NCBI GenBank assembly: GCA_018659585.1
Contig: JABJMC010000023.1
Location: 5,416 to 69,415 of the forward strand
Direction: 5' to 3'
Length of the DNA stretch: 64,000 nucleotides
DNA from: Candidatus Peregrinibacteria bacterium
Lineage (GTDB): Bacteria; Patescibacteriota; Gracilibacteria; UBA1369; UBA12473
Below the pieces are notes generated by a model. That model saw only the letters and a list, made by a program, of their open reading frames with translations, had not been told where the DNA came from and ran no database searches. A program made the translations under genes and the position numbers. Shown piece by piece: positions 22,173-59,247 of the stretch (position 1 is its first letter; each line of letters opens with the position of its first letter).

Positions 22173-22200
22173 ACTTGCCAAAAAGAATCCGTATAATACA

Positions 22201-22230: not shown

Positions 22231-22233
22231 TGT

Positions 22234-22309: not shown

Positions 22310-22317
22310 AATAAATT

Positions 22318-24651
22318 TTACAAAAAGTCCTCCCCCCAAATCTCCAAGAAGTAATCATGGACATCTTCGGTAAACACATATTCCCACGTCCAATCTAAGA
22401 CCAGTAAACGATAAATCTCTTCTGAGACCTCCGCTCGAGTTCGGCCATAATTAGGATCAAAACTAGTTCCTGATTCTTCCAGCAAACCCATATCATAAGC
22501 TGTTTTTAAATAAGGGGCATACCAGGCACTAGAATAAACATCTTCATACGGGAGTTCATTCAAATTCGCCCAACTCGGCACTTCCACACCATAAGACTCC
22601 ATAATCATTTTCAAAGCCTCCACTTTACTCACCGTATTTCCTGGATAAAAATTTCCATCACTATAACCTTGAACCCAACCTTGTTCCTTGGCATAACAAA
22701 CATACGATGCAAACCACTCATCCGTCACGTCTGGAAAACAATCTCGATAAGTATCTTCATCTGGAGTTTCGCCTAATGACCCATGAATCATCACTTTTAT
22801 TAACTCCGCCCGATTAATAGTCTTATTTGGCTTAAATGTGCCATCCTCGTATCCTTCTAGCACTCCTATATAAGTCAAAAACTTAACTGCTTCATAATTA
22901 CGATGACTGGAATAAATATCAGAAAAATTCACACCCGCTATATCCACTACAATTTCATTACTATGATAAGCACTTTCCTCATAATTTCCGCTAAATCCAG
23001 TTACCGTAAAATAAAATGTATCATCCCATAAATCAGTAATTGTAGCGTGAGTAATATGTGCTCCATAAATTATTTCAAAATGAGTATAATAACCACTATC
23101 TGTTCCATAATTTACATAATAACCAGCCGCGTCTTCAGCCCCAACTCTAGTCCAGTTCAAAGTTACAGAATTTTCGGTTGAAGAAAGTAATTCTACCTCC
23201 GTAACTGTCAAATCATCAAAAGCCCCTTCTTCGGTCCAACCATCAATATTTTCACCAGCCTCATCCCCCTCTTTATCAGAATCATCTTCAACTTCAACCT
23301 CTGTTTCCTCTATTGTTGTAATTTCAACTTCCTCCCCCTCCAAATAATCACCAACCGTCGCTGAATAAGTATAATCATACGCAACAGAAAAAGCGTCTTC
23401 TTCACTTTCAATACTAGCTGGATCATCCGAAAGCGGAGCCAAAATAACTGTAATCAAAGTGCAATCTTCCATAATTGGAAAAGTAATCGTTCCTTGCCCA
23501 TCACCAGCGTCAATTCTAGTTGAAATCAATTCCTCTGTTAAATACACTAAATCTGTTTCTGGCAAAACCATTACTCCTAAATCAATTTCTGAGCTTTTGG
23601 ATAAAGTTAACTGAAAATCACTACCCCAATGCGTAGAATTAACCCAAAATTGCAAATAATTAACTCCAAACAAAGCTGGATTTTGGTAATACCAAGTTGA
23701 TTCATCTTCAATCGGGTATTCATCTGAATAGTGTAAACCTTGAATATCTACCCAAGGATATTCTGACCCCTCTTCATAATAACTTCGCAAGTAATTCCAA
23801 TAAGCAAAATTCATATAAGTATCCCTAATATCGTCTCCTTGGTCCGAAACAATCTCACGGTAAGCCTCATAGGCATCCCAAACATCTGGGGTCTCCTCAT
23901 TAAAATAAGCATCCACTACATCGGCAATCAAAGTCCAATCTTCATAGTATTCACTAATAAAAATTGGCCAAATAGAAAGAGCGTATTCAAACAAACTACC
24001 ATCTGGAATAACCCCCGTAAAAACTGAATAATCAGGATAATTAAAGTAATGATAAAGATAATTGTAGTAATCATCTACATCGTCATACATATATTCTTCT
24101 ACCCAAGTCGCAGTTTGCTCGGCAAAGTTAATATCTTGATCATAACCCGCAAAATATCCCTGATATCCAAACTGAATAACATGAAAAAGTTCATGCGCAA
24201 TCGTCACTTTCAAAAGCTCAGTATCTAAACCCGGATCAACCGCCATATAAATTTCACCATTAGGCAAAATACCCGTTACACCCAAAGTCCCTTCATCTAA
24301 ATAAAAATCTCGATCATCCAGAATTAAATACACTTTTTCTTGATCATCCAAAGGCGAAGGAAGACCCAAAGTCCCCACTTCCTCATCCCAACTATCCTCA
24401 GCGTATTGTGCAATTTCTTCCAACAAATTAGATTCACCATCATAATCCGTATCTTGACCATTTTTGATCGTTTTACTGAACTCAATCATAAAATGTTCAG
24501 TATCAATGGCGTTTATTTTGTGAGTCCCACCATAAATATTAGACTCAAAACTAAAAGCTAAGGCCGTGTTAGAGATTAAAAATAATCCAATTAACAGACC
24601 AAAGGCCCCCATAACGGAGGCCTTAATTTTTCGGGAGGGTAATTTTTTCAT
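22318..24651 (-). CDS. secreted HExxH (putative zinc metalloprotease) protein with an FN3-like module and three C-terminal SLH domains
   Basis: 777 aa. Signal/anchor helix, HELFH motif (TIAHELFHVIQ), an FN3-like segment (VTLNWTRVGAEDAAGYYVNYG), and SLH repeats at the C-terminus (FSDIY...GYEDGTFKP; FPDVTDEWF...GYSDGNFYP; YEDVYSSAWY). Confidence 0.75.
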   Translation of the reverse strand: MKKLPSRKIKASVMGAFGLLIGLFLISNTALAFSFESNIYGGTHKINAIDTEHFMIEFSKTIKNGQDTDYDGESNLLEEIAQYAEDSWDEEVGTLGLPSPLDDQEKVYLILDDRDFYLDEGTLGVTGILPNGEIYMAVDPGLDTELLKVTIAHELFHVIQFGYQGYFAGYDQDINFAEQTATWVEEYMYDDVDDYYNYLYHYFNYPDYSVFTGVIPDGSLFEYALSIWPIFISEYYEDWTLIADVVDAYFNEETPDVWDAYEAYREIVSDQGDDIRDTYMNFAYWNYLRSYYEEGSEYPWVDIQGLHYSDEYPIEDESTWYYQNPALFGVNYLQFWVNSTHWGSDFQLTLSKSSEIDLGVMVLPETDLVYLTEELISTRIDAGDGQGTITFPIMEDCTLITVILAPLSDDPASIESEEDAFSVAYDYTYSATVGDYLEGEEVEITTIEETEVEVEDDSDKEGDEAGENIDGWTEEGAFDDLTVTEVELLSSTENSVTLNWTRVGAEDAAGYYVNYGTDSGYYTHFEIIYGAHITHATITDLWDDTFYFTVTGFSGNYEESAYHSNEIVVDIAGVNFSDIYSSHRNYEAVKFLTYIGVLEGYEDGTFKPNKTINRAELIKVMIHGSLGETPDEDTYRDCFPDVTDEWFASYVCYAKEQGWVQGYSDGNFYPGNTVSKVEALKMIMESYGVEVPSWANLNELPYEDVYSSAWYAPYLKTAYDMGLLEESGTSFDPNYGRTRAEVSEEIYRLLVLDWTWEYVFTEDVHDYFLEIWGEDFL

Positions 24652-24667
24652 AAACGTTGTTTAAAGA

Positions 24668-27600
24668 TTACATGGTTGACTCTTGAGCATAAAACTCATA
24701 AAGCAATGTAATCATCTTAAACATTTCTGCCCGATTTACCAAGTTAAATGGTCGGAAATAGCCATCAGGATAACCAGACACAATACCGTTATCCACCGCG
24801 GTTTGGATCATATCAGAAGTACTATCATAAAGCCCTGAGCCATCCCCTACATCAGGAAAGGAATAGGTATCATACTCTGTGTAATCAATACCTAAAATTT
24901 CGAAACCTAGTTGAATAACTTCCCATCGATAAGCTGGGCTTGTCCCCTGGCTTAAATCTGTTCCAATTACGTCATCCAATATCGTAAGCTCCAAACCAGA
25001 GTTATAAATGCATTGGACATAACCTTCAGCCCAGTGATCTTCCATCCAATCCACATCACTAGTTAAATCCACTGTATCTGACTCACAACTAGTTTCACCT
25101 AAACCAATATCTAAATGATCAGCCAACTCAGACATAATCTTAATTAGCTGCAAACGAGTTAGATTATCAGCCGGTCCAATATGCCCCGTTAGATTACCGA
25201 AAGCGTCTTTATAACCAGAAAAGAAATAAGCAGTAGCTACATCCATATAATGCGCATACCAAGCATCATAATCCGCATCTAACATGTATCCAGCCGCAGC
25301 CTGCACATCTTCCATTTTTTCTTCTAATTTTTCTTTAGCAATTCCAAAAATATTAAGAATTTTATCATTCAACTCATCACCAGTAAATGTGCCGTCGTTA
25401 TAGTCATCTAACGCACTTTGCACCGTAGAAGTAATAATGGCTAAATCTTTTCGTAAATCAATAATCAAAGGATCTTCATCCTCATCATCACCAGGTAAAA
25501 GATCGAGCAAACTATCAATTATCGCATCTGTAGTTGTCAAAACATCATCATCTAATTCTCCGGTATCTTGAACATCATCAATAACATCTACTAACCGATA
25601 AATTTGCGCGTGAAGTTCAAACAAATCACTAAAAATTTGATCTGCAGCTATTAATAAATCACTACGATTCTTAAACATATCGCTAATCATGATTTGGTTA
25701 CCAGTGCCATCATCTAATTCAAAAATTCCTAACTCATCTTCTAGACCAAATTGCTCATCAAAAACCTCATCACCATTCTCATCTTCCACAACCACCTCTA
25801 TATAACGATCTGATTGCGAATCACTAAAAGAAACTAAAGATAAAAATCCATCCATATGACCAAAAAGTCCGGCATCTAATTCCATCGAAGATTTATCATC
25901 AGAACGAACCAAATAATCATAACCTTCCTCTTCGTGAACCTCGAGCAGCATTGGCATATAACTTCGAATAATAGATCCTTCATTTAGAGAAAGATTAACG
26001 TTATAAAAAACATCCTCCTCATTAGTTGAACCATTTCCATCTAGATTACCAATCCTAACTTGTAAAAGAGCTGTGTCTTTAAAAGTTTGAAACCAACTAG
26101 AAAGTTCAATCAAGTTAAACATAACCTGATAACCATCTGCGTATTCATACTTGTAATAACCATCCTCTACCAAATCATCTAGAAATACTTCTAAACTTGT
26201 ATTGCTATATTCAGAATTAAATTCAATAAACGGACCATCCCATTCACCATCACCATCATCATCCAAATCCGCTTTAATCTTAAACAAAATCCCATCTTTC
26301 CCATTATAAATAGTAGAATCAAAAGATGTCATCGTTGGATTCGTATTTCCAAAATCAATGAAATCCTCATCTTCAAAACCTAATTTATCAATTGGACGAC
26401 CCACAATTGAATTTTCAAAATTTACGCTTCCGTCCCAGCTAGTTGGCTCTATGTCATCATCGTCACCAACATATCCCCACTTAACTGTTAAATAGTAAAG
26501 ATCTGGATAGTCAGAGTCTGTCCAAAGCTCTTCAAAATCACTAAACACATCATCATCAAAATCATCTTTATCCACTTCATCAATACCATCATCAACATCA
26601 TCTACATCAGTATCAGCCACGTAATCGTAAACAATCTCCATTACTAAATTTGTAACCTCCATACAGTTATTATCATCATCTAATTCTTCCAACTCATTAG
26701 CTGGATCAACACAAGCTTTTACATCATAACTTTGGCTATCATCAAGCACCAAAGGTTGAATTGTAGAAACTCCATCAACTACCAAAAATTCTCGATTACT
26801 TTCAGATAAAGTCGAAGAATTATAGGTGTATTCAGGGTTATCAAAATCATCAATATAAATATAAAGACCCACCTCCGTATCAGAATCTACAACTCCTTCA
26901 TTTCCAACTTGAACACTTAAACGATTACTTTCATCAATATAAATATCTTGCAGCACTAAATCAGCTAAATCCTCATCCACTACAACTGTTTGCGCTGTTT
27001 CAAAAGTAAAAGATTCCTCCATGCAATTATTGTCCTCATCTGATTCCTCTACAGAATCTAAATAATCCACACAAACTTCTATTGTTTGATCATCTGTCAC
27101 ATTAAATGGTTGCAAAATAGACGAACCATCAACTTCCACAAAACTCTGGTCAGCTAGAGTTTTCCAGGAATAAGTCTTATCAAGCTCACCATCCACCCAA
27201 ATATAAGTTACTCCACCAGTAGTAATTTCGGCATCAGCTTCTCCTTCGTTTCCGATTTGAATAGAAAGAGTATCACCATCTAAATAAATATCCTGTAGCA
27301 CTAAATCTGGCAATCCAGCGTCAAAAGTAGCTTCTAAACAGTTATTTTCTTCATTTAATTCTTCAACCACGTCTTTTGCGTCCACACAAGCTTCAACAGT
27401 ATGAGCACCAGTCAACATTCCGGGGCTAATAGTGGCACTTCCATCTACTTGTAAAAAGCTCTTATCATTCAAAGAAGTCCACGCATAAGTGTAGGACAGC
27501 TCTTCATCAATATAAATATAGGTATTTCCGGCGGTGGTTGAATCCACGTCCGCATCACCTTCATTCCCAGACACCACATTAAGATAAAAATCATCATCAA

Positions 27601-28384
27601 TAAAAACTTCTTGCAAAACTAAATCCGGCAAATCAGATTCTAAAGCTACTGTTAAACAGTTATCTTCCTCGTCAGACTCTTCTACAATTCCATAATAGTC
27701 CACACAAGCTTTAACTTCGTGACTTCCTTCTAAACTCTGAGGATTAATAATTGATTCGCCCCAGGCATTAAGAAAATCCTTATCTAATAAAGTAGTCCAA
27801 GTATAAGACCAAGCAGTTGTTTCCATATCATCAATAAAAATTGACGTCAGCCCGGCTGTACTAGCATCAATATCAATATCACTCTCATTACCAACTTGAA
27901 TATTTAAACTACCATCGCCATCCAAGTAGATATCTTGCAAAACTAAATTAGGAAATCCATTTTCCAATTCCTCAGTCGCACAATTATTGTCTTCGTTTGA
28001 TTCATCCACGACATCTGTAGCATCCACACAAGCCATTACCGTATGAACACCATCTAGCATTTCAGGACGTAAAACTGTTCCAACACTTCCCGCAACAAGG
28101 AATTCTAGATCCTCATCAGCCATAGTTGACCAAGAATAAGTCCAAGCTGGAGTATCCATGTCATCAACATAAACAGTCGTTTCGCCTTCTGTAGCAGAAG
28201 AGACATCCTCGGTACCAGAATTGCCCATCCAGACACTCAAATAGCCTGAATCATCCACATAAACTCCATACATTTCTAAATCATACGTGGAGTTGCCTGA
28301 AGCTACCGCCAAAGCTAAACTTGGCAATAACGAGATAGATAGCGTTGCTATGGTAAGAACGCTAATAAGTTTTTTGAAAACCAT
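24668..28384 (-). CDS. large secreted acidic protein with five CARDB-like repeats and C-terminal SLH domains
   Basis: 1238 aa. Signal peptide (ends LALAVA), five repeats of about 105 aa, a long D/E-rich middle region, and an SLH-type C-terminus (FPDVGDG...GYPDGYFRPFNLVNRAEMFKMI). Confidence 0.8.
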   Translation of the reverse strand: MVFKKLISVLTIATLSISLLPSLALAVASGNSTYDLEMYGVYVDDSGYLSVWMGNSGTEDVSSATEGETTVYVDDMDTPAWTYSWSTMADEDLEFLVAGSVGTVLRPEMLDGVHTVMACVDATDVVDESNEDNNCATEELENGFPNLVLQDIYLDGDGSLNIQVGNESDIDIDASTAGLTSIFIDDMETTAWSYTWTTLLDKDFLNAWGESIINPQSLEGSHEVKACVDYYGIVEESDEEDNCLTVALESDLPDLVLQEVFIDDDFYLNVVSGNEGDADVDSTTAGNTYIYIDEELSYTYAWTSLNDKSFLQVDGSATISPGMLTGAHTVEACVDAKDVVEELNEENNCLEATFDAGLPDLVLQDIYLDGDTLSIQIGNEGEADAEITTGGVTYIWVDGELDKTYSWKTLADQSFVEVDGSSILQPFNVTDDQTIEVCVDYLDSVEESDEDNNCMEESFTFETAQTVVVDEDLADLVLQDIYIDESNRLSVQVGNEGVVDSDTEVGLYIYIDDFDNPEYTYNSSTLSESNREFLVVDGVSTIQPLVLDDSQSYDVKACVDPANELEELDDDNNCMEVTNLVMEIVYDYVADTDVDDVDDGIDEVDKDDFDDDVFSDFEELWTDSDYPDLYYLTVKWGYVGDDDDIEPTSWDGSVNFENSIVGRPIDKLGFEDEDFIDFGNTNPTMTSFDSTIYNGKDGILFKIKADLDDDGDGEWDGPFIEFNSEYSNTSLEVFLDDLVEDGYYKYEYADGYQVMFNLIELSSWFQTFKDTALLQVRIGNLDGNGSTNEEDVFYNVNLSLNEGSIIRSYMPMLLEVHEEEGYDYLVRSDDKSSMELDAGLFGHMDGFLSLVSFSDSQSDRYIEVVVEDENGDEVFDEQFGLEDELGIFELDDGTGNQIMISDMFKNRSDLLIAADQIFSDLFELHAQIYRLVDVIDDVQDTGELDDDVLTTTDAIIDSLLDLLPGDDEDEDPLIIDLRKDLAIITSTVQSALDDYNDGTFTGDELNDKILNIFGIAKEKLEEKMEDVQAAAGYMLDADYDAWYAHYMDVATAYFFSGYKDAFGNLTGHIGPADNLTRLQLIKIMSELADHLDIGLGETSCESDTVDLTSDVDWMEDHWAEGYVQCIYNSGLELTILDDVIGTDLSQGTSPAYRWEVIQLGFEILGIDYTEYDTYSFPDVGDGSGLYDSTSDMIQTAVDNGIVSGYPDGYFRPFNLVNRAEMFKMITLLYEFYAQESTM
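26617..28285 (-). repeat. five tandem in-frame CARDB-like repeats of about 105 aa
   Basis: Each unit starts (L)PDLVLQDIY(L/I)D and ends ..H(T/E)V(E/K)ACVD...VEE.(N/D)E(E/D)NNC, the classic CARDB pattern. Boundaries are approximate. Confidence 0.7.
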
Positions 28385-47157: not shown

Positions 47158-47186
47158 TTGATTTCTTCCCCTTTTTGTGTTAAAAT
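47158..47186 (+). promoter_or_regulatory. sigma-70-type promoter for the giant-gene pair
   Basis: TTGATT (47158-47163), a 17-nt spacer, then TAAAAT (47181-47186) with a TGn extended -10 (TGT at 47178-47180). It lies 32 nt upstream of the ATG at 47219. Confidence 0.55.
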
Positions 47187-47218
47187 TAAATGATTTATAA
47201 AACTAAAATCAAAAAACC

Positions 47219-50200
47219 ATGGATTCTCTCCAAAAACTAAAACAAAAGGCCTACTGGTTGGCCTACGACCATCTTGCGTCCACAAAACCAGCCCGACTAC
47301 TTTTCTTTACCGGTGGTGGCGAAAGCTATAATCCCGAAAACGAATTAGCTGAAAGGCAAAAAGAAATGGCTGAAAAAGGATTAGAAGATGAATTAGCTGC
47401 TGAATTCAAAGCAATGTCAAACATTGTTGAATCAGCCATCAGGGAAGGCCTCACATCAGCCGAAGAAACAATGATTCGAACACAAATGGACACATTATTA
47501 GATTCAAAAATCACTAATTTAGAACGCGTCCAACAAGAAAAAGGCGCCACCCTCGAAAGATTAAACTACATAAAAACCCACGAAAACTTAAGAAAAGCTT
47601 TTTCCAAACTTAATGACAAACAATTTCAAGCTTTAACAAATTTAATCGAGACTGCTGAATCTTCAATTCAAGCCGGCAATCTAGACCCTAAGAATCCTCC
47701 AGATTTAAATGCCGCCAACGCTCTTGAAAGCGCTTGGATGAATAGCGATCACAAAGCCCTAGGCATCACCCGCCCCGGACTCAAAAAAGTTCGCAGTGCC
47801 GCCCAAAACCTCGTCGCCAAACTCGAAGCAAGCGCTCTAGATAACGTTACCGATGAAGAAGTTGATGAATTTGAATTTGAAGGATTTGATCCTGATACCG
47901 GCGCCGAGCTACCTCCAGAAGACGATGCCCCATCTCCAATTGACGAAGAACCAACCCCTGAACAAGACCAAGTACTCGCTGCCCTCGAAGAAGAAGAGTC
48001 AACTGTCGAAAAAACTCCCGAACAACTCCGCGCAGAACTTCTTGAACAAGGACTTATTCGTCAATTAGAGCTAAACGAAATGCAGTTCTTATTACATAAC
48101 ATGGCGGCTAATCACGGCATGACCGAAAATCAACTTCGCCAACTTAATAATAAATTAAGTCCACGCCTAAATATTAAAAACGCAACCGACGGCAGCGGAG
48201 CCTATGTTTACGCCGAAGACATTGTCTACGTCTACACATCCACCGAAAACGCAATCCAAGCCGAAATTGCGCTTGGCTTCCGTGAACCTCCACCACAACC
48301 TGAAGAAATAGTGACCGGCGAAGACGTAGCCCGGGCCGAACGTGAAGGCCAAATATTTGAAGCTGAACTAGCCGAAGAAATGTATGGCCAGGAAGGTGCT
48401 CGCATAGAATCAACTCGTCAATCTTTACTAGAACAAAATGGTCTGGCTAGCCGACGCGCTTCCTTAACTGGAACACTCTTAAATCGTGACTCAAATCTTA
48501 CTTTAGACTCCAGCATGCACAACCCGTTTACAGCTACCCGAACCCTAGGCCTTATGAATGGCCTTATGAATGAAGGAGGAACTTGGGAAAGCTTCAAACC
48601 CCTTTGGAACCATGTTGATGGTCGCAACGCTGTTGAAAACTGGTTAGAAGAACAATCTACTTTCGAACTTGCTGATTATGATTTAGAAAATTACTTAATC
48701 ACACTGGCCAAAAAAGAAGGCTTTGCTATCCAAAAAGATTTACAAGACATCTCTTTTGAAAAACTAATTGATAGTGTTTACGGCAGTGGTATGAGTGGTG
48801 AATCACTTATTATCGCTCTTGCTGCTCAAGCTGGTGTAGGAATTGATAATTCTTTTCGTGGAAAAAAACGTAAAGAGCTAACCGAAGAAGACAAACGAAT
48901 AAAAGGCATTCTCCGCAACATCCAAGGTGATTTCCGCAATGATTATGACCGCATGCTCGATACTCTTACACTCGAAATATCTGAAAAAACTTATGTGGGT
49001 AATGGTGAAGTTGACATCACCCTTCAAAAAGCAGATGGGACCGAAGCTATTACCGCTCGAGTCCCCCTTCACCACGTTGTTCAGCTCCAAGAAGGAGACC
49101 TTGATGTCCCCTTAGCCGACAAAACAGAACAAGACATTCAAGATCTAATTGATAACCGACCAGAATCTCCTATTTTTGTCGGACCAACTGGCAATTTGCT
49201 AGCTCTAGATGGCACTAATTTAACTAATAACGTCACTGATGGTGATTTCACTAAACTCTCCGAAGAATTCAAAACTGAACGTGCCATTGTAGCGGCCATG
49301 GAAACTATCTACCAAGACGTAGCTGAACTTTACGACCGCACGGCTGATCTTAGCTTCGTCGACTCTGGTGCTGATGAAAGTTATCAACAACGAGTCACTC
49401 GTGCTCGAGTTGAAGCCTTTAGAGCTTTAGAAGGCCATGGCGTGGCTGTTGCCAATTTTGGAGACACCCTAGACAGTGCCTTAATTACCGGCGAATACGC
49501 TGGTCGCAATGCCGAAGCCTTAGGATTTATTCGCCGTGGTGGAGAACTAACTTACGAAGACACTGAAACTGGCGGTAAATTCATCGTCACTAACGAAGAA
49601 ATTTTTGATTACTATGATGGTGCTGCCGTCGTAGACGACATTTTAGATGAATTTTTAACAGAAGAAGTCTCTCATGGCGGAAAAAAAGAAACTTTCAATG
49701 TCCAAAAAGGAATGAAGTTTTTAAATAATAAATTAATCACCATCGCTCTTCGCACCAACCAAGAATTAATAGATAAATATGGAGGCTCTAGTGATGATCC
49801 AGAAATTAGATTCCAAACCGCTTTTAGAGCTCTAAAAGTTAAAAAAGAAAGCATTATTCCCACCGAAGGCACTCCTCTTGTCCCTTTAACCGCTGATCAA
49901 ATCACCTTAATTCAAGAGGGTTACATGATCCATTCTACCGTACGAGAAGCCAAACAAATTACCGAAGGTAAAGAAGCGGTCGAAGCCTTAGCAACATCTG
50001 TTACTGAACTTAGATTTAAACTGAATGAGGAACAAATTGCTGGCCTTGTAGAAAGCATCGTGAGTACAAATCCCGAGTGGGACAACCCTCATAACCGAGC
50101 CATCATTGCTGGACAACTACGAATCGGGGCTGGACTTGGAACTCTCACTACTGTAGATCGCGGCCACCAACACACCACCACTACTATTACTAAAGTTGAT

Positions 50201-53149
50201 GGTGAAGTCGTAGACATTTCTAGTAAAAGTGAAAACCTACGTGAAAGTTCCATTGATACTTTATTCACCGTTGGCCTAGGTATAAGCCCCATTAACATTT
50301 CCGGACTCGATCCTGACGGCCGAGGGAAATTTAATGTTGGATTTTCTGGCGGCGTTAATCTTCGTACCGGAAGTCCATCAGCGGCCATGGGAGTTCGTTA
50401 CAGCGTAGAATTCAAAAATGGTATCGAAGTTTACGTTGATGGTGGAGTTGGAACCAATATCGCTACCCTTGGTGGTGGAGTTATTATACCAGCTGGAGAA
50501 GCTAGAATTGACCTACATGGACATATCTATCCAGGAGGAGTTGAATTAGGTGGAGCTGTCACTTTTGGCAACCTCCAACACAGCTTTACTCGTGATCTTA
50601 CCGAAGCCTTTACAGATAACGGGTTTAAAGACATTGACACTGCTTTAGAAGAAAACGGTGGTGCTCCTAGTCGTGAAATGGTTGATATGATTTTAGCCAC
50701 CGATGATTTTAAAGCCGTAGCCGGCCCTTATGAACAAATTTTTGGAGACCTTGGTATTAAAAACGCTCGCGATAATGAATTTTTCCAAGAATTTATTCTA
50801 ATACGTTACCGTGAACAACGCAGTCAACGCGCTAGCGAGGTCTTACATGGCACTGCTGCTAATCCTTTAGATCCCGCCAATATTACTGTGGGTCTTTCTG
50901 CTAACTTCGGAGCCAAAGGTTGTGGTATAAGCGGTGGAATCGGAACCTCTGCTTACAGTCAAAGCCTAACTTTCCGCTTCCCAACCGGTATTAATTATCC
51001 AGAAATCACTGACCAAAAAATGGTAGCCGACTTACTTGGCAAGGAAATCGATGCTAGTGGTGACATCTTAAGCGGACGCGTTCCTCAACTAGTCCCCGAC
51101 CCCGACAATCCCAAGAAAATGATTCTCGCTTTTGAAGGAGATGCCCACGAAGGACTTCTTCTAAATCCTGGCAACATGGATGGATACAACGAGGATCTAA
51201 TGGACGATGGACTTTACCTTCGCCCGACACAACTCGCCTACAGCGAAGACGAAGGCCAAGAAATCCACGAAGGTCGGACCGTTTTAGAATTAGACATTGC
51301 TGATGCTAACGGTAGCCTAGACATTATTATTGACCCCGCTATTGAAAGTAATATTCGTACTCTTTATGGACTTGGAAGCGGCACTGTTTCTGACCATTAC
51401 TTCCTTGCCTGTGCGCCAGGAACCGATGTAGTCATGCGTCGCACTAATCTTCACTACCCACAAAAGAAAAGCGGTGCCTACGAACGTACTATTATAGTTA
51501 TCACTCAACCAGGCTCAGCTAAAACTTATCAACAATTACTCCGCGAAGGAGCTCCTATGCTCCACCGCGCCGCAGGTGAACGTACTGTTCCTGACATGGC
51601 CGGTAGCGATTACTTACTTAATGAAGACAGAAGTCCAATTATGACTGCTGATAAGTACTTAGGCCTTTCTGAGGAACAACAAGCTGATTGGACTGATGTC
51701 GCAAGAGGCGACCTAATGTCCCAAGAATACGCAGAAATGCTTGGTTCTTATCCAGGAGCAGGAATAGAAATTGATTCAGAAAGATTTGAAGCTGTGGTTC
51801 GCGAACTTATGGATCCTAGTAACGATAGTTCTCACAAAGACTTCCGCATTAAATTCAAAGATCTCTCCACGCTTGGGGCTCACCCAGATTTAGAACAACT
51901 CACCGAGCACTGCCGACAAAAATCCGCCGAAATGTTTGGTACAGCCCTACAAGGCGCTGAATTAGCTCACTTTATTCAATCTCTTACGATCTTTAGTTTT
52001 GTTGACATTCATAAAGAAGCTAGCGACCCAGAAACTACCTCCGAACGTCGCGAAGAATTACTCAAACATCAACAATATGTATATAGTGAAATGCTCGAAG
52101 GTAATCCTCCTCCTCCATGGAAAGGTTATATGAAGAGACGTCTAAATACTGAATTCAAACAACTATCTATCGATCAAAAACAAGTAAATAAAATGGTAGA
52201 ACTTATTATTAGCCACCTAAGAATATCTCCTGAGCAATATGAACTGTTTGGAAAAGCCGGAGATAAACTCCCCGAAGGTGGTATATTCGGATCAATTGTT
52301 GGAACAGATAGTATTAATGGTATCCGCATTACCGAAAACTACCGTGATCAAGAATTCTACGAAACTCTTGGACTTACGGATTTTAGTCTCCACAGCGAAA
52401 ATCCAGTAGAACAAGACGTGGCCAGAGCCATTATCATGATCATGAATCCACTCCCCGAAGCCACGAAAATGACCATGGAAAATCTTGATAAAATTCATAA
52501 TTTCGTCACCGACGACTTCACTCAAAAAATTATGATGCTATGGGGTTATCGTAATCCAGAAGAACATGGACAATTAAAAGCCTTAACAGAAAAAGTATTT
52601 GGAGAAGGAGAATCCAAAGAAAACCTACGCGCTGCCCTAACAGCTGCTCAAACAGATGAGGGTAACGAACTTCTAACTTTACTTAGTAACGTTCAAGTCT
52701 ACGCCACCAAAGCCCGCCGCGCCGAGTTAGCCGGGACCGAAAGAATTCCACTTGGAGAAAATACTTTCCTTTCCTTCAAAGAAGTCCAAGCTAGTTTCTT
52801 TGTTTTCCAACGTTGTGGAAATGTTTCTCCTTATTTAAAAGAAAACCTAGCAGTTGAAACCGAAATGGGTAATACCATCGCTGTTGCGGAAGATGCCCAC
52901 GTTCGCGTCCAAGCTCAAGGAGCTGAACGAAAACTTACTGTCGGTCTTGGAGTTTCTTCTCAATTAGAATGTGTCGAAGATCGTACTTACGAAGTTATTG
53001 TGGAAAATGAGACTACTCCAGGAGATAACCCTCCAGAATTTGCACCTGGAGCATTCCAAGCTGGAGATATTGAAGTCGGCTTAGGCGAAGACCCCGGCGG
53101 AGGCGAAGACAGCGCTACTGGCACCACTGGTCCTAATCAACAAGAATAA
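47219..53149 (+). CDS. giant hypothetical protein (1976 aa), with no signal peptide or TM helix seen
   Basis: 5.9 kb uninterrupted ORF. The N-terminal third is acidic and helical. A Gly-rich beta-like core sits around residues 965-1255. I recognise no enzymatic motif. Confidence 0.85.
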   Translation: MDSLQKLKQKAYWLAYDHLASTKPARLLFFTGGGESYNPENELAERQKEMAEKGLEDELAAEFKAMSNIVESAIREGLTSAEETMIRTQMDTLLDSKITNLERVQQEKGATLERLNYIKTHENLRKAFSKLNDKQFQALTNLIETAESSIQAGNLDPKNPPDLNAANALESAWMNSDHKALGITRPGLKKVRSAAQNLVAKLEASALDNVTDEEVDEFEFEGFDPDTGAELPPEDDAPSPIDEEPTPEQDQVLAALEEEESTVEKTPEQLRAELLEQGLIRQLELNEMQFLLHNMAANHGMTENQLRQLNNKLSPRLNIKNATDGSGAYVYAEDIVYVYTSTENAIQAEIALGFREPPPQPEEIVTGEDVARAEREGQIFEAELAEEMYGQEGARIESTRQSLLEQNGLASRRASLTGTLLNRDSNLTLDSSMHNPFTATRTLGLMNGLMNEGGTWESFKPLWNHVDGRNAVENWLEEQSTFELADYDLENYLITLAKKEGFAIQKDLQDISFEKLIDSVYGSGMSGESLIIALAAQAGVGIDNSFRGKKRKELTEEDKRIKGILRNIQGDFRNDYDRMLDTLTLEISEKTYVGNGEVDITLQKADGTEAITARVPLHHVVQLQEGDLDVPLADKTEQDIQDLIDNRPESPIFVGPTGNLLALDGTNLTNNVTDGDFTKLSEEFKTERAIVAAMETIYQDVAELYDRTADLSFVDSGADESYQQRVTRARVEAFRALEGHGVAVANFGDTLDSALITGEYAGRNAEALGFIRRGGELTYEDTETGGKFIVTNEEIFDYYDGAAVVDDILDEFLTEEVSHGGKKETFNVQKGMKFLNNKLITIALRTNQELIDKYGGSSDDPEIRFQTAFRALKVKKESIIPTEGTPLVPLTADQITLIQEGYMIHSTVREAKQITEGKEAVEALATSVTELRFKLNEEQIAGLVESIVSTNPEWDNPHNRAIIAGQLRIGAGLGTLTTVDRGHQHTTTTITKVDGEVVDISSKSENLRESSIDTLFTVGLGISPINISGLDPDGRGKFNVGFSGGVNLRTGSPSAAMGVRYSVEFKNGIEVYVDGGVGTNIATLGGGVIIPAGEARIDLHGHIYPGGVELGGAVTFGNLQHSFTRDLTEAFTDNGFKDIDTALEENGGAPSREMVDMILATDDFKAVAGPYEQIFGDLGIKNARDNEFFQEFILIRYREQRSQRASEVLHGTAANPLDPANITVGLSANFGAKGCGISGGIGTSAYSQSLTFRFPTGINYPEITDQKMVADLLGKEIDASGDILSGRVPQLVPDPDNPKKMILAFEGDAHEGLLLNPGNMDGYNEDLMDDGLYLRPTQLAYSEDEGQEIHEGRTVLELDIADANGSLDIIIDPAIESNIRTLYGLGSGTVSDHYFLACAPGTDVVMRRTNLHYPQKKSGAYERTIIVITQPGSAKTYQQLLREGAPMLHRAAGERTVPDMAGSDYLLNEDRSPIMTADKYLGLSEEQQADWTDVARGDLMSQEYAEMLGSYPGAGIEIDSERFEAVVRELMDPSNDSSHKDFRIKFKDLSTLGAHPDLEQLTEHCRQKSAEMFGTALQGAELAHFIQSLTIFSFVDIHKEASDPETTSERREELLKHQQYVYSEMLEGNPPPPWKGYMKRRLNTEFKQLSIDQKQVNKMVELIISHLRISPEQYELFGKAGDKLPEGGIFGSIVGTDSINGIRITENYRDQEFYETLGLTDFSLHSENPVEQDVARAIIMIMNPLPEATKMTMENLDKIHNFVTDDFTQKIMMLWGYRNPEEHGQLKALTEKVFGEGESKENLRAALTAAQTDEGNELLTLLSNVQVYATKARRAELAGTERIPLGENTFLSFKEVQASFFVFQRCGNVSPYLKENLAVETEMGNTIAVAEDAHVRVQAQGAERKLTVGLGVSSQLECVEDRTYEVIVENETTPGDNPPEFAPGAFQAGDIEVGLGEDPGGGEDSATGTTGPNQQE

Positions 53150-53176
53150 TCTAATAAAATCTAATAAAAACTAAAC

Positions 53177-56100
53177 ATGGTACTGCTCAAACCAAAAATC
53201 AAATTAAAGTCCATTGTGGCTATCGTCACCTTATTAACTCTCGCTGCTTCTTCTCTATCTTTTGCAGTTGGACGCGGTGGTGGCGGTGATAGCGTTAGTC
53301 AATATTCCAGCATTAACTCTGGAGAAACATCAACTGAAATCGACCCCATTGATTCTTCACCGAATTACGAAGAAATCACAGATACAAGTTGTGCCACAAC
53401 CTATCACACTCATGAGCACTATTTTTACGCTAATAACAGTGCAGATTATGATTATTGGCTAGCAATTCACGGATTTGCCATTGTTTTAGATTATGATTAC
53501 GACACCAACGACAATCCAGCGGAAAACGACTTTTTGAGCAATGTCGATACTTCCAGCTTGCGTTGTACAGTTGGTTCAGATTACACCGATTGTCCTTTTG
53601 ATGTGGAAACTGATTTAGGAACAGAAATTGCCTCTGGCAGTGATTTTTATGGCACCACTGTCACCTATCAAGAACTAGACTTTTTACCTGGAAACCCACG
53701 TGGTTTACTCTGGGAATATGGAACTGACGACTATACAAATCTAAGTGACGGACCAGCCTGGTTACACGGACGAGACTACATGTGGGAAGACGTCCCTATG
53801 ATTAATGAAAGTATTTCTTTTGGCCTTACTGAATACACCGAAGACTTTACGGCTACTACTACTTCTTACACCTTAGTAGAACCAATTTATATTGACCCTG
53901 CTGACGATTATTCAGACTGGAGCAATTACCACCACTTCTACACCGACGAATCCGACCCAGATGGCGATGGTGTGGTCGAAGCTGACCCAGATGGTGACTA
54001 CATTTACTGGTGGGGAATGAATGGTATTGGACGCTCCATTTTCACTGATTGTGTAGATGCTTGTTCCGACCTAGAAATCACCTCCCCTACCGAAATAACC
54101 GCTGATGATACTGAGGGTGTCACTGCCCTAGAAATCTACGCTACTGACGATAACGACACTCCTGGTGAATGGGATGGAACCTATAACTATAGTAGTGATG
54201 GAACTTGTGAGTTTACTACTAATAGTATCTATGCTGCCCTTGGCTTTGGTTCAACAGAACTCGAAACTGATGACACCAGCGTTTATGTCCACAGTTGTAC
54301 TCCTGGTGACACTATTTCTATTACAGAAATTGATTACCCGGTAGATTGTGCAGCCTCACTCGAAATTGGAGATGCTTGTTCGGAATTAGAAATTACTGAA
54401 CCTCCAACTACTATTACAGCCTCGGCCATGGATGATGGACATGTGGTTTTGGGTATCGAATCTGGCGCTGTTAGTGGTGATGCTTGGGCTGGTGAATATG
54501 AATTTTCTGCCCTAGCTGAAGATGGCAGCCTATCTACTGGGCGCTTTCATTCAAATTATACAACTGGTTTAGCTGGTGCTGGGACTAACCCTTACACTAC
54601 TACTAATCAAACTGTTCACTATTTTGATGGGGCCCCAGGCGACAGCATTCAAGTAACAGAAACTGAATACCCAGTTGCTTGTTACGATGAAATTGATTCC
54701 GAAGGACTTTATTGTTCACGCCTACGTATCTCCCCCATGGCTTTTACTTATGAAGAAGCCAGCACTCTAGTAACTATGGATGTTCGAGCTTGGGACCAGT
54801 TAGATGACGCCTGGCCCACTACTTATACCATCGAAGGTGATGCTACTTGTAAATTCACCGAAGACATTACCGATGTCGCAACTGATAACGGCTCATCTTC
54901 ACTCATTTCTTCTGCTAACACCATTTACATTTACGGTTGTAGTTCCGAAGAAACAATTACTGTTATAGATTCTGAATATCCTGTTGCTTGTAATGCCGAA
55001 GCCCAAATTTTAGCCGAAGACCTACTTTGTCGCGAAATGACTGGAACCCCAGAAACCATTACTTACGAAGAAAGTCTTAGTGTTATGGAACTTCATTATG
55101 ATGCTTTTGATCAAAATAGTGATGACTGGGAAAACGGAGACTATACCCTTTCTAGTGATGGCACTTGTCTCTTTACTGAAACAGCTGATGACGCTGCTAA
55201 TGGCAGTGGCGTTGCTACCCTTTCTACAACTGAAACTACCGCCTTTGTTTACGGCTGTACTGGTGGAGAAACTATTCATATTGAAGAAGATTCCTACCCG
55301 GATGATTGTTTCTTTGAAATCCCTGTAGATGCACAAGTTTTAGCTTGTACTTCTATGGAGTCAGTGCCTACCTCTCTAACTTACGAAGAAGTTCAAGCTA
55401 TCGCCGAAGTTCACTACGACACCTATGACCAAAATGGTGGTGATTGGGAAAGTCTTTACGAAGTTTACAGCGACCTTGGCACTTGTTTATATACCGAAAC
55501 TTTAGAAGAAGCCGAAGCTGGCAATGGACAAGATTCTCTTGATTCTATTTCGGCTACTACGGTTTATGTTTACGGCTGTGAGGCCGGCGACATTATGCGC
55601 GTCGAAGAAATCTACTCCGCCTATGATTGTTACGTTGAAATCCCAATTAGTGATGAAATTCTTTATTGTGCGGCTCTTTCTACTACACCAACTTCTTTCA
55701 CTTACGAAGAAAGTCTCGAAATTCAAGAAGTTGTAATCACATCTAGCAACCAAAACAGCGGCATTTGGGATGGTAATTATGAAATCACTTCTACTAATGG
55801 AACTTGTCTTTTTGCGGGCACGCTCGAAGATGCTGAATCTGGAGCCGTGGCTACTGCTGACTTAAGCATTATCGAAGAAATTTTCTATGTTGTTAGCTGT
55901 GACGCTGGCGACACAATTATTATCGAGGAAGTTGATTATTATGATGTTTGTAACGCCGAAATTCCAATTGGAGTTGAAGGTCTTTATTGTGCCGATCTCT
56001 CCACTACACCAACTGCTTTCACCTATGCCGAAACTGCCGAAATTCAAGAAGTTGTAATCACAGCTGGCGATCAAAACAACGCTGTTTGGGATGGTAGTTA

Positions 56101-59020
56101 TAGTATTTGGAGTAGCGGTGAAGCTTGTTTATTAACCGAAACTCTCGAAGAAGCCGAAGCTGGTGGTGGTACAATTTCACTCGAAACAGAATCTGAAATT
56201 TTTTATGTTTATAACTGTAACCAAGACGGCGGAGGCGATAACATTTATGTTTTTGAACAAGCTTATCCCGATGTTTGTCTAGCAACAATTACCACCGAAG
56301 CCCTAGGCCCTTACTGTGGCGATGGCACTCAAGACTCTGGTGAAGAATGTGATGATGGTAATAATATTGATGGCGATGGCTGTTCCGCTACTTGTACACT
56401 TGAAGTAGCGCCATACTGTGGTGATGGCACTTTGGATTCTAATGAAGAATGTGATGATGGCAATAACATTGATGGTGATGGCTGTTCCTCTACTTGTACA
56501 CTTGAAGTAGCCCCTTACTGTGGCGATGGCACCATGGATTCCGATGAAGAATGTGATGATGGCAATAATCTTGATGGTGATGGTTGTGACGCGGATTGTA
56601 CAATCCCGGCTTGTATTAGCTTATTAATCTCCCCTACTACTACTGCTAATACGACTGAAACTTTTACTATCACTCCTGACCCAACTGATTGGGCCGGACC
56701 TTGGACTTGGACTACTACCAACCCCGAAGGTCTATTCTTTAGCGATGCTACTCCAGACGCTAGTTACAATGAAATTATAGTTGAAGTAACCGAAGTAACT
56801 TACGAAGGTGGCGAAAACGACACTATCTCGGTTTACGAAGCCGGCAGTTACGCTGATGTTTGTAGTGCCTCGGCTAAAATTGATGCCACAACTCCATATT
56901 GTGGTGACGGCATAAAACAAACAGAACTTGGCGAAGAATGTGATGAAGGAGCTAATAACGGGGTTTTCGGCAGTGGATGTTCCATTAGTTGTCAAGAAGT
57001 CCCTGGTGGAGGAAGCACTCCTGATCCTACCCCCACTCCTGGAGGAGGCAGCTCTGGTGCTTGTACTTACCTTAAAATTTTCTCTCCTGAAGATTTTTGG
57101 GAAGGTGAGAATGAATATTTCTATTCCACTGGCGAAACCTTTACTTTCACTGATTTAGAGGTTGGCGATACTATTATCATTAACTTAGAAGCCCTAGACG
57201 GGATCCTTTATGACACTGATTGGAAGGGAGTCTCTGGATCTTATAGTTATGACTATAACTGGGATTACACTGGTGTTACCGAAGTTGAAATCATTAACGG
57301 CCCCGAACAAGAAGATGAAGACAACACTGCCTACGCTGAATTTACCGTTACTGATCCTGAAGCTGTTTCTATTGAAGTTATGGTCGATACAAACACTGAC
57401 TGTTCTGTTACTTTCATCCAAGAAGAAGTGGTCGAAGAACCAACTCCCGCTGAACATGATGATGGTTTAACTAAGAGTGCTTTTACTTATAATTTTGGGT
57501 GGTTTTATGCTGATGGAGGTCAAGTTGATGAATCAGAAAAAACTACCTCTAGCAGCGGTTATGGTTTTACTGGCACCGAAACTTTCGCACATGACTTTGA
57601 TTATGTTTTCTACACTCTTACTTATGACCTTTCCAGCAATCTTAATGCTTACGAAGAAGGTGACATTTTGACTATTACTGACACTATTTCTGATGATGAC
57701 GGAACCGTGGGAATTGGAGGTGTAATTGCTGACCCACATGTTAATGACACTTATGGTTGGGATAACGGAGAAATTAATTTCTATACCCCCGGCAGCGAAC
57801 CAGATGATCCAGCCGTAGTAACTAATTGGACTAATGGACAACCATTCCGGGTTTACTATTCCTCTGATGAAAGCGACATTGATGCATGTGATGGTTTTAT
57901 TACTGATACTTGTTATAGCGGCAGTGTCACTTCTGGATTAATTTTTGAAAATCTTGACGAAGCTCCAGCTGCTTACGGTGACATCGTCATTCAATATGTT
58001 GGTCGTGTTTCTAACGGAGGCTTCGATTGTGCAGCAATGGCCGCTGATCCCGAAGTTTCTTGTCCTGTTCAATATTTAGAAAACACCGCTACCGCTGATA
58101 ACGGCACCGAAACCCACACCGCCAGCGCCGACATTACTATTACTTGTCCATATTTACTCACTCAAAACGCTGGAGATATTTATTACGAAGATGATATCGA
58201 AACCTTTGATATCTCCTGCTACCAAAATTACAAGAGTAGTGACTCTGTGGCATTAACTGCTGATGATTCTTTATTAGCTCGACTTTCTAGTTACATTCTT
58301 TATCAAACTAAAGAACTTGTAAATGAACTAACTGATGTTTGGAACCGTATTAAAACTACGGACAATGATCAAATCGCTAACTTTGAGGCTGTTAGTCAAA
58401 ACACTACCAGCATCACTACTAGTCTGAATAAAACCCTCTACACAAACACTGAATATACTTACGAAGATACTTCCGAATATTACATTACTATTGATGATTT
58501 TGAATCTAACTTGAGTACTTTATATCAAACAAATCCTAAACAAAACGTTTATCGCGTTAGTGACGCTGATCTGATTTTTGATCTTGGCGCACACGCTATC
58601 CCAGGAGAAGCCTATACTTTTATTGTAGAAGGAGGCCATGACTTAATATTCAAGAGCAATCTTAATTACACAGACACTTTTGACACTAGTGATTTGGATA
58701 GCGTGCCATCCATTGCCTTTATCGTAACTGGTGGCGGCGATGTCTACATTCACGATGAAGTAACCGAAATTGTTGGTGTTTACTACATTGACGGTGGTGG
58801 TGTGATGACTGGTGAATGGACTGATCCATTTACTACCCTTACTATTTACGGTTCTGTTTACGGAAATATTAATAGTTTGCTTGGCCAACGTACTTTTGCT
58901 GGTCCAGCTAACTACAGTCACGGTAATGTCGTGCTTCGCTATGACGAACGAATTTTCCTAAACACTCCTCCGGGATTAGAGGAATATATAGATGTCACCT
59001 CAGAAAGAACTGTTCACTAA
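53177..59020 (+). CDS. giant secreted repeat protein (1947 aa) with a novel 4-Cys repeat array and myxo-type Cys-rich repeats
   Basis: N-terminal signal/anchor ([20 protein letters not shown]). Seven repeats of about 107 aa, each with four conserved Cys. Three tandem plus one isolated [22 protein letters not shown] repeats. The gene starts 27 nt after the previous giant gene. Confidence 0.85.
54050..56308 (+). repeat. seven tandem in-frame repeats of about 107 aa (321 nt period) with four conserved cysteines
   Basis: Consensus: L-x-C-x-x-L-x-x-x-P-x-x-(I/F)-T-Y-E-E...W-x-G-x-Y...(D/N)-G-T-C-x-F-T-E...(I/V)-Y-V-Y-G-C...E-x-x-Y-P-x-x-C. Units 6 and 7 start at 55661 and 55982 (exactly 321 nt apart) and share identical runs such as gaaattcaagaagttgtaatcaca. 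Confidence 0.75.
56309..56611 (+). repeat. three tandem 102-nt (34-aa) Cys-rich repeats (Myxococcus-type cysteine-rich repeat / DUF4215-like)
   Basis: The units start at 56309, 56411 and 56513. Each encodes [17 protein letters not shown](I/L)DGDGC...C and they are highly similar at the DNA level. Confidence 0.8.
56894..56992 (+). repeat. fourth, diverged copy of the Cys-rich repeat
   Basis: [33 protein letters not shown]. Confidence 0.65.
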
Positions 59021-59035
59021 CAGGTGGGAGGGAAG

Positions 59036-59190
59036 ACTTAAGGTTAACAAAAAAGAGTTGTTTTTCGCAACGAATCAATTATCGGAGCGGAGCGGGCTTG
59101 GTGTTGCGAAGCAACCCGCGACGCGAGATCATAGGTCGCGTTCGCCGCTGGAGCGAACGACGACCGATGGTGAGTGCGAAAAGCCGACTC
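59036..59190 (+). ncRNA. candidate structured RNA of unknown class (or an unusually elaborate terminator region)
   Basis: A 13-bp Watson-Crick helix pairs 59036-59048 with 59177-59189 and stacks on an 8-bp helix (59052-59059 with 59165-59172). Next comes a 5-bp helix (59071-59075 with 59154-59158). These enclose hairpins GTTGC-GAA-GCAAC (59093-59105) and GTTCGC-CGCTGGA-GCGAAC (59130-59148), plus CGCGAC/GTCGCG (59107-59112 with 59125-59130). The core 59071-59176 is 68/106 G+C by my count, against AT-rich flanks. The strand is assigned from the 3' T-tract and G-U pairs and is uncertain. Confidence 0.45.
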
Positions 59191-59247
59191 TTTTTTGTTG
59201 AATACTCGGAATCTTTCCTTCCATCTGTTTTGTGGTACACTTCGGGC

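Follow-up and report, generated by a model that had tools for sequence, protein, structure and literature searches.

A conserved pair of adjacent giant genes in a sub-clade of Peregrinibacteria and Peribacteria, predicted to encode a secreted surface fibre and a fast-diverging partner protein

Bacteria that belong to the candidate phyla radiation (CPR, Patescibacteria) are thought to live attached to other cells, and to our knowledge their contact molecules are largely unknown outside Saccharibacteria. A stretch of 64,000 nucleotides from Candidatus Peregrinibacteria bacterium (assembly GCA_018659585.1, contig JABJMC010000023.1, positions 5,416 to 69,415 of the forward strand; hereafter the window, position 1 being its first letter) raises the question of what is encoded by two giant genes that follow each other there, which we call A and B. 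An earlier note, made from the DNA letters alone, described them as a putative operon that matches no known system and might form a surface attachment or host-interaction apparatus of an episymbiotic CPR bacterium. The assignment to the CPR holds, as an identical partial protein is named Candidatus Peregrinibacteria and the related genomes are labelled Peribacteria or Peregrinibacteria. The answer that we tentatively favour, with somewhat less than even confidence, is that A and B form a lineage-restricted, single-copy and probably co-transcribed surface apparatus of a Peregrinibacteria/Peribacteria sub-clade, in which B would be a fibre and A its membrane-associated partner on the cell side.

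The coordinates of the two giant open reading frames (ORFs), 1976 and 1947 aa long and 27 nt apart, could be confirmed (Table 1); they span 11.8 kb on the same strand and take up 18.4% of the window, close to the 18 percent given previously. Assembly errors, named in the earlier note as a possible explanation of the long ORFs, were checked. An exact-sequence look-up with B found the same locus on at least 24 contigs, and in the loci that were fetched, from 6 independent assemblies, the 13.8-kb stretch from tpiA to holA has 0 differences to the window; assembly error and pseudogenisation of A and B are therefore excluded. The broader suspicion that the pair is an artefact or mobile DNA, i.e. 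a mis-assembled stretch, a pseudogene, or a cassette of the phage, defence or toxin type, is effectively refuted. Its sole hint is one PHROG holin match at E 0.059, and against it stand, besides the identical assemblies, about 50 genomes in which the A and B ORFs are intact, a place in the chromosome that is fixed and lies between housekeeping genes, and a GC content that runs across both genes with no shift or discontinuity. A defence or phage origin is likewise ruled out by the search for PADLOC matches, meaningful PHROGs matches and relatives on viral contigs, all of which were negative. Directly 3' of the A stop codon there is a perfect 10-nt tandem duplication (tctaataaaa x2, window 53150-53170).

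The pair is not peculiar to this genome. The order tpiA (minus strand), giant ORF in the position of A, B homologue, holA was found in 9/9 metagenome contigs examined. A scan of one genome per GTDB species with two conserved C-terminal peptides of B yielded 49 loci, whose arrangement was derived from ORF calling, phmmer and jackhmmer; tpiA, A, B and holA follow each other in every one that has enough flanking sequence, which amounts to about 48 related species. These loci are labelled Peribacteria, Peregrinibacteria or 'Gracilibacteria', the exceptions being two that carry just the label 'Patescibacteria group bacterium' and a probably mis-binned contig under the label 'Nitrospirota'. Across the loci the ORF in the A position measures 1,490-2,090 aa and lies directly 5' of a B homologue of 900-2,330 aa, the gap between them being -8 to 192 nt in 42 of the 44 related loci, and all 44 upstream giants fall into one BLAST single-linkage component. 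The module occurs once per genome (the lone apparent duplicate is one gene split over two contigs), and neither A without B nor B without A was seen in any genome where the flank is available. The check on co-occurrence and adjacency proposed in the earlier note thus came out in favour of the pair, with A and B side by side in every relative examined. The module is nevertheless not universal in the clade: in the published genome of Ca. Peribacter riflensis some 350 kb separate tpiA from holA, and giant genes adjoin neither of them (supplement of PMC4736985). A distant sub-group has an ORF of 52-53 aa between A and B that overlaps the start of B (L008, 9850-10011; L009, 6977-7135); neither the window nor the closer relatives L001-L007, with their A-B gaps of 17-52 nt, have it.

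The promoter evidence points in the direction of a single transcript. The near-consensus promoter that had been noticed before A is present as TTGATT-17-TG-TTAAAAT, and phylogenetic footprinting showed that 7 relatives, 3 of which have an otherwise diverged spacer, all keep the TTG of its -35 and the extended -10 TGnTAAAAT unchanged, even though promoter-like sites are no more frequent in the region than in shuffled sequences. A site scan of the region found neither a promoter-like nor a terminator-like site in the A-B spacer. On the downstream side, alignment with relatives places the true start of holA at ATG 59248, preceded by a conserved extended -10 element of its own, TGTGGTACACT; the mechanical ORF start, TTG 59098, is about 50 codons too long (window 59098-59247). 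The claim of a structured, T-tract-terminated element after the pair survives in altered form. The hairpin immediately 3' of B (59018-59100) is no better than shuffles (z -0.47), which together with the terminator scan rules out a simple terminator right after B, but a larger GC-rich structure lies between B and holA, with a minimum free energy of -51.3 kcal/mol and a z of -2.54 (1/200 shuffles). This element matched no Rfam family, can be aligned in part only, in close relatives, and may act as a terminator. The operon reading of the pair is supported because the genes lie on the same strand with short gaps, one conserved promoter stands 5' of A, B has none in front of it, and the -10 element of holA is a separate one. 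It is plausible, as judged from these sequence features, that A and B are co-transcribed from one promoter.

Protein B bears out most of what had been read from its letters, namely a signal sequence, seven 4-Cys repeats and myxo-type repeats. Its signal peptide, read directly from the sequence, is tripartite, with a basic n-region, a hydrophobic stretch (Kyte-Doolittle hydropathy over 19 residues, KD19, of 2.26 at residues 13-31) and small residues at -3/-1. A comparable signal, often ending in AXA, is found in all but one of 14 aligned B homologues (P0017 is without the N-terminal ~300 residues). By this evidence B is exported by Sec, and the signal is probably cleaved. The mature protein is very acidic, with 56 Cys, 19% aspartate plus glutamate (D+E) and 1.9% lysine plus arginine (K+R). 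Relatives of B fall into 17 clusters of 25-47% identity.

The 4-Cys repeats were detected by jackhmmer with i-Evalues of 4e-25 to 1e-49, and their number differs between B homologues; they are probably Ig-like beta sandwiches. The myxo-type repeats score 83.1 bits with the hidden Markov model of DUF4215 (PF13948; cut-off 27) and 120.2 bits with TIGR02232 (cut-off 20.8), their PYCGDG motifs standing at residues 1045, 1079, 1113 and 1240. DUF4215 is an accessory module and does not define the family, because 6/15 members carry the repeat. The repeats are followed by less conserved beta regions and then by the C-terminal module, which holds most of the invariant columns of the B family and whose last 47 aa are 91-95% identical to those of the relatives L011 and L001. 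This C-terminal region, in which no motif had been recognised at first reading, has indeed no Pfam family match and no PDB sequence match. In the almost Lys-free B, K1433 is invariant, together with T1437, N1439, F1440, H1472, D1475 and N1636 (residues 1431-1440 correspond to window 57467-57496), a set that, we speculate, could belong to a metal site or to an isopeptide bond formed within the molecule. The motif TQNAGD was considered as a thioester (TQxA) and rejected, the Gln not being conserved (TRGAGD in the homologue P0010).

Sequence comparison gave little on the fold of B: a profile search of PDB sequences with the 15-sequence B profile found nothing significant, and Pfam scans of every family member returned only DUF4215 and one CARDB match. 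We now turn to the model of a homologue. P0010 is the shortest one with both conserved ends, and its residues 42-1241 were modelled from a 15-sequence alignment; the model is all-beta, with a mean predicted local distance difference test score (pLDDT) of 57 and values of 70-90 for the terminal domains. With Foldseek, 42 PDB matches at E<=1e-3 were obtained. They include integrin alpha legs, the macroglobulin (MG) domains of C3 and alpha-2-macroglobulin, the adhesins known as microbial surface components recognizing adhesive matrix molecules (MSCRAMMs; SdrD, SdrG, ClfB, Cnm, ACE), the C-terminal domains of AgI/II, Gram-positive pilins, and TTHA1873. The matches to the Ig-like domains of the MSCRAMM type (DEv-IgG / CnaB-type) have E 1e-4 to 1e-3 and probabilities up to 1.0, and refer to P0010 and not to the window protein. 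By this model B would belong to the general class of stalks that consist of Ig-like beta sandwiches, and B looks like a secreted surface fibre or adhesin. The idea of a surface attachment or host-interaction apparatus is to this extent upheld for B, through signal peptides and the P0010 matches, while a functional coupling of A and B is not established. No LPXTG motif, hydrophobic C-terminal tail or C-terminal transmembrane (TM) segment is present in B, and the SLH domain (PF00395) is absent from A, B and all their homologues, being present in 3 other proteins of the window.

What, then, is A? The description of A as a protein with no signal peptide, TM helix or known motif proved correct: its maximal KD19 is 1.27, its N-terminal hydrophobicity is 0.51 as opposed to >2.1 for the exported proteins of the window, and no match was found in Pfam, NCBIfam or PADLOC and no meaningful one in PHROGs. 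Pfam scans of all A family members gave nothing above threshold, and neither did PDB sequence profile searches with 8 sequences, 25 sequences or 35 beta-region segments give anything significant. A word-indexed search found only A itself, whether it was queried with one sequence or with a profile of eight; this was a false negative, and A is not an orphan, because synteny-guided comparison and an exhaustive HMMER search found relatives. The family is very narrow, as that search (query residues 777-1976) retrieved only 12 proteins at E<=1e-3 among 1.84 billion representatives, and its alignment contains no conserved 7-10-mer.

The divergence of A is exceptionally rapid. Between the window and L001 the identities are 89% for TpiA, 89% for HolA, 47% for B and 26% for A; the corresponding values for L011, the closest relative, are 88%, 78%, 49% and 43%. 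Over 190 genome pairs the identity of A is 23-30% once that of the housekeeping proteins is below about 80%. Divergence is spread over the whole length of A, with a hypervariable stretch at residues 100-300: the window protein shares 35-40% identity with L011 and L001 over residues 1-100 vs 12-23% over residues 101-300, and BLASTP alignments to L001, L012 and L003 begin only at residue 374-397, that to L011 at residue 258. The conserved N-terminus reads ...KPxRL[VL][FY] in the group of the window and M[AV][IL]xC..G[FQ]..P[FW]...R[VL]..[FY] in distant groups, and we speculate that it may be a targeting or docking peptide of a non-Sec kind. The motif 'TRRVYL' of some A homologues is not a Tat signal, as most members have one Arg and there is no hydrophobic h-region.

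The amino acid composition gives a hint about where A resides. In this organism a low K+R content is a handy marker of localisation, as seen window-wide: it is 1.9-5.6% in the five proteins with a signal peptide (B, three SLH proteins and one TPR protein) and 8.5-18.5% in soluble cytoplasmic proteins, and A stands at 9.2%. The family medians of K+R and Cys are 12.4% and 0.17% for A, 4.8% and 2.14% for B, 8.3% and 1.28% for TpiA, and 14.3% and 0.92% for HolA. By charge A looks cytoplasmic, and its cytoplasm-like K+R therefore speaks against a conventionally secreted effector; the suggestion that A is a cargo or effector presented by a fibre is thus not established.

The structure predicted for A is of moderate confidence. 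An AlphaFold2 (AF2) model of residues 777-1976, built from 11 sequences, has a mean pLDDT of 60 and a predicted template modelling score (pTM) of 0.39 and shows helical regions broken by three beta modules: a Gly-rich meander, a mixed module at about residues 1220-1430, and long hairpins near the C-terminus that carry an RCGN motif (residues 1865-1868, of which C1866 and N1868 do not vary within the family). The acidic N-terminal third (D+E 24.5% at residues 201-400) and the Gly-rich beta core described in the earlier note are both found, the latter with 15% Gly at residues 1001-1200, whereas a purely alpha C-terminal half is not, since two further beta modules appear there in the model. The model matched nothing in the PDB or BFVD with Foldseek at E<=1e-3.

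A number of weaker signals nevertheless come together at the meander. The six C-terminal strands of residues 968-1116 alternate cleanly with a period of two residues, so that hydrophobic residues make up 67-83% of one face and 0-20% of the opposite one. Locally, the best Foldseek matches of this module in the PDB are all transmembrane beta barrels, among them the designed TMB10 (probability 1.0, TM-score (TMt) 0.58, root mean square deviation 2.4 Å), KdgM (TMt 0.52), VDAC, NanC, TamA and PapC; all have E > 1e-3, the TMB10 and KdgM matches combining probability 1.0 and TMt 0.52-0.58 with E 0.1-0.5. In BFVD the best matches are phage-encoded 'outer membrane protein' and 'porin domain' proteins. 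Among the equivalent segments of 35 A homologues, Pfam returned OMP_b-brl in four and Porin_4 in one (1e-4), as well as PagL, DUF481, DUF3575, MspA and YadA_anchor, all below the curated cut-offs; OMP_b-brl reaches E 0.33 for the window segment and 0.032 for the best family member. A sequence profile of the region ranked de novo TM barrels first among PDB entries, with E 0.11 and 0.31. We regard these as hints of a barrel-like module, concordant over three methods yet not significant. Further along, many homologues have at the position of window A residues 1220-1246 a hydrophobic, Gly/Pro-rich 20-25-mer, e.g. AIVAGALVGGPVGAIVGAIAG, with KD19 up to 2.08; the segment of the window protein itself is only weakly hydrophobic.

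These hints could be taken further. Protein B might be an adhesin and A an exported pore or translocon that leaves the cell by a non-Sec route, possibly via its conserved N-terminal motif, and whose barrel and hairpin insert into the membrane of the B-bound partner or host, as a conduit for nutrients or lipids that the organism cannot make. Such a role would suit a porin-like amphipathic module and a hydrophobic Gly/Pro segment in a protein free of TM helices, as in soluble-to-membrane proteins, and also the extreme divergence rate of A, expected at a host interface, its strong Cys depletion and the conserved peptide ahead of the hypervariable region; in addition, fatty-acid synthesis is lacking in Peribacteria (PMC4736985). 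We consider it unlikely all the same, given that the K+R content of A is cytoplasm-like and 2-3 times that of the exported proteins of this organism, an export system for A was not identified here, the barrel matches are all sub-threshold, and the hydrophobic segment of the window protein is weak (maximal KD 1.27).

Whether A and B work together at all is a separate matter. They may be functionally independent giants that remain neighbours through a frozen gene order; B would then act alone as an adhesin, and A would be a structural or cytoplasmic protein under weak constraint that has nothing to do with B. Synteny across the clade extends to the entire neighbourhood (Mur ligase, Wzy_C, tpiA, A, B, holA, gatCA) although its genes are functionally unrelated, and adjacency alone is weak evidence of coupling because tpiA, holA, gatCA and the other neighbours are equally syntenic. 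The sharp difference in composition between A and B, and their loosely coupled identities (26%/47% for L001, 43%/49% for L011), would also suit independence. On the other hand, the two genes share a strand, short gaps and a single conserved promoter with no terminator between them, both are single-copy and confined to the same clade, and neither was found without the other wherever flank is available. With housekeeping identity controlled, A and B also show a positive but weak residual covariation of rates (Spearman 0.33; the pairs are non-independent), which mildly favours coupling. Taken together, we judge independence of the two giants to be rather unlikely.

The apparatus of a fibre and a cell-side partner, which we prefer, builds on the gene structure, the linkage, the conservation of the promoter, the export signal and domains of B, the fold class of B as seen on P0010, and the divergence and composition of A. 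In this apparatus B would be exported by Sec, probably lose its signal, and become an acidic, disulfide-stabilised extracellular fibre with a conserved N-terminal beta domain, an Ig-like 4-Cys stalk of species-variable length, DUF4215 repeats and the conserved C-terminal module; most likely it would serve to contact other cells or surfaces or to adhere to them. Protein A has no Sec signal and would, by its composition, most likely stay on the cell side, where the amphipathic Gly-rich beta module and the hydrophobic Gly/Pro segment may attach to or insert into the cytoplasmic membrane, and its large helical regions could serve as a scaffold that positions, anchors or helps to deploy B.

Several points weigh against this proposal and need to be mentioned. 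All barrel-like matches are below significance and the model of A is of moderate confidence (pLDDT 60, pTM 0.39). At 89% identity of TpiA, A is less conserved than the surface protein B (26% vs 47%), and such fast evolution is unusual for an intracellular scaffold; A is also far more Cys-depleted than the housekeeping proteins (median 0.17%), a trait that is typical of proteins exported unfolded as well. After cleavage of its signal B has no recognisable anchor, be it LPXTG, SLH or TM, through which it could connect to a cell-side A. The covariation of rates rests on non-independent pairs, and the conserved adjacency may reflect frozen gene order only, tpiA and holA being equally fixed neighbours.

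A bolder version of the same proposal would make A and B a previously undescribed envelope or host-contact machine, in which A delivers a monomeric porin-like barrel and a glycine-zipper-like hairpin and B is the matching fibre. The target could be the organism's own single membrane, reached from inside, or that of the partner cell. We find this improbable, but if true it would mean a beta-barrel membrane protein made without the Sec/BAM (beta-barrel assembly machinery) pathway in a monoderm, and a candidate conduit for metabolites or lipids from other cells.

The pair appears to be of interest irrespective of the reading that one prefers. It is a clade-wide and easily recognised target (single-copy, positionally fixed, 11.8 kb, with a conserved promoter), and it combines a clearly extracellular fibre with a partner of no known family that diverges far faster than housekeeping proteins. 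If A inserts into membranes, it would bear on how beta-barrels are built in a monoderm cell and on how symbionts acquire lipids and metabolites; if A is cytoplasmic, it would represent a new cytoskeletal or scaffold class, analogous to the terminal organelle of Mycoplasma. Antibodies, labels for cryo-electron tomography and metaproteomics could make use of the conserved ends of B and of the motif at the N-terminus of A.

Table 1. Position of the two genes, their parts and the adjoining signals, in window coordinates
Feature	Coordinates	Strand	Remarks
Promoter-like site TTGATT-17-TG-TTAAAAT	47158..47186	+	33 nt 5' of the A start codon
Gene A (ORF-A)	47219..53149	+	ATG start, 1976 aa
A N-terminal motif (...KPxRL[VL][FY]), residues 1-35	47219..47323	+	conserved ahead of the hypervariable region
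A acidic hypervariable region, residues ~100-395	47516..48403	+	D+E 24.5% at 201-400
A Gly-rich amphipathic beta meander, nine long antiparallel strands, residues 968-1116	50120..50566	+	AF2, pLDDT 50-80
A Gly-rich hairpin, residues 1220-1246	50876..50956	+	AF2 model
A C-terminal long beta hairpins with RCGN motif, residues 1842-1931	52742..53011	+	AF2 model, family alignment
A-B spacer, 27 nt	53150..53176	+	no promoter-like or terminator-like site
Gene B (ORF-B)	53177..59020	+	ATG start, 1947 aa, 56 Cys, K+R 1.9%
B signal peptide, residues 1-30	53177..53266	+	n-region with 4 Lys, 16-residue h-region, SFA/VG
B N-terminal beta-rich domain, residues 55-292	53339..54052	+	conserved; model of homologue P0010 all-beta, pLDDT 70-86
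B seven tandem ~107-aa 4-Cys repeats, residues 293-1027	54053..56257	+	jackhmmer, DNA repeats
B three tandem 34-aa DUF4215 / myxo_disulf_rpt repeats (PYCGDG...), residues 1043-1145	56304..56609	+	
B fourth, isolated DUF4215-type repeat, residues ~1240-1273	56894..56995	+	
B conserved C-terminal module, ~540 aa, residues 1410-1947	57404..59017	+	beta-rich in the homologue model
GC-rich structured element of 115 nt with terminal T-tract CUCUUUUUUG	59083..59197	+	between B and holA ATG 59248

The genes that flank the pair are housekeeping genes. Upstream, the minus strand carries tpiA, genes for a Wzy_C protein and a Mur ligase, truB, an MraY-like GT4, asnS/aspS, dnaG and rpoD; downstream follow holA, a GNAT gene and gatA. 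Elsewhere in the window a few genes tell something about the cell envelope. Three clustered SLH-domain proteins of 353, 777 and 1238 aa are encoded at 21111-28384 (both strands), the largest having three CARDB domains and a C-terminal SLH, with a tRNA-Arg(TCG) at 22234-22309 inside the cluster; the organism therefore anchors some surface proteins via SLH, but not B. SecD and SecF are fused into a 1066-aa protein (17889-21089, +) with a PpiC-type peptidyl-prolyl isomerase domain inserted at residues ~254-349, an unusual fusion by which an accessory protein of the translocon carries its own foldase. At 12592-13350 (+) there is a gene for a prepilin peptidase (PilD, Peptidase_A24), so that the organism has type IV pilin-like machinery. 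Another large acidic ORF, of 1264 aa (5410-9204, +), has no signal peptide, no Pfam match and an intermediate K+R of 7.3%; jackhmmer detected no relation of it to A or B.

It remains to compare the pair with systems that are already known. The claim that it matches none of them stands in so far as no characterised family apart from DUF4215 was found. Proteins of the kind of B have been described: Peribacteria have large proteins (~1,650 aa) that are rich in Cys, bear a signal peptide and weakly resemble the Cys-rich repeats of Myxococcus, and a role in attachment was proposed for them (PMC4736985). They belong to the same phylum and B fits their description, so B alone is not new. The difference lies in the arrangement, since in Ca. 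Peribacter riflensis these genes form a 14-gene cluster and are otherwise scattered, rather than standing in a fixed order between tpiA and holA, and no signal-less partner resembling A was described (PMC4736985). The conserved A-B pairing and the A family are new, and the literature searched held no description of either. Giant surface proteins are also known from other small genomes: Vampirococcus lugosii has giant membrane or surface proteins, inferred to be membrane-localised, and a single membrane (PMC8080830), and Giant1-5 of Apilactobacillus kunkeei are described as extracellular (PMC12863079). The likeness consists in a large coding share spent on consecutive or multiple giant surface proteins with a presumed role in cell-cell contact, and the difference in other protein families and in A having neither signal peptide nor TM helix.

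Secretion systems that combine a barrel with an adhesin offer a second comparison. Two-partner secretion (TPS; TpsB/TpsA) and inverse autotransporters (intimin/invasin) have a barrel component beside, or fused with, a large repetitive adhesin, and the order of barrel first and adhesin second, as in shlB-shlA, recalls that of A and B. They differ in that they need an outer membrane, a signal peptide on the barrel, POTRA or LysM, and TPS, none of which is found in A or B; no Pfam match to the TPS domain (haemagg_act), to POTRA or to a ShlB-type barrel was obtained in A, B or their homologues. Nor does A look like an outer-membrane porin of the usual kind, as it has no export signal peptide and the Vampirococcus relative has a single membrane (PMC8080830). 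Features of RTX proteins and the type I secretion system (T1SS) are likewise missing, with no HemolysinCabind match, a Sec signal in B and no repeats in A. The MSCRAMMs, antigen I/II and sortase pilins (SdrD, SdrG, ClfB, Cnm, BspA, BcpA) share with B Sec export and a variable repeat number, and their tandem Ig-like stalk may have a counterpart in B, as they are the best structural matches of the B-family model, which was built on P0010. They differ from B, which has no LPXTG, no hydrophobic tail, almost no Lys and stabilisation by Cys pairs, and no sequence homology connects them.

The attachment organelle of Mycoplasma, a wall-less or monoderm symbiont with a reduced genome, pairs the surface adhesin P1, a protein of ~1,600-1,900 aa with TM anchors, with an equally large, signal-less, fast-evolving cytoplasmic partner, HMW1/HMW2. 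No similarity of A or B to P1 or HMW1-3 was detected in Pfam, PDB sequences or folds, and there are differences in architecture, as A contains beta modules rather than forming a long coiled coil, and B is without TM anchors. The likeness is one of functional analogy only, in which B would correspond to the adhesin and A to the scaffold.

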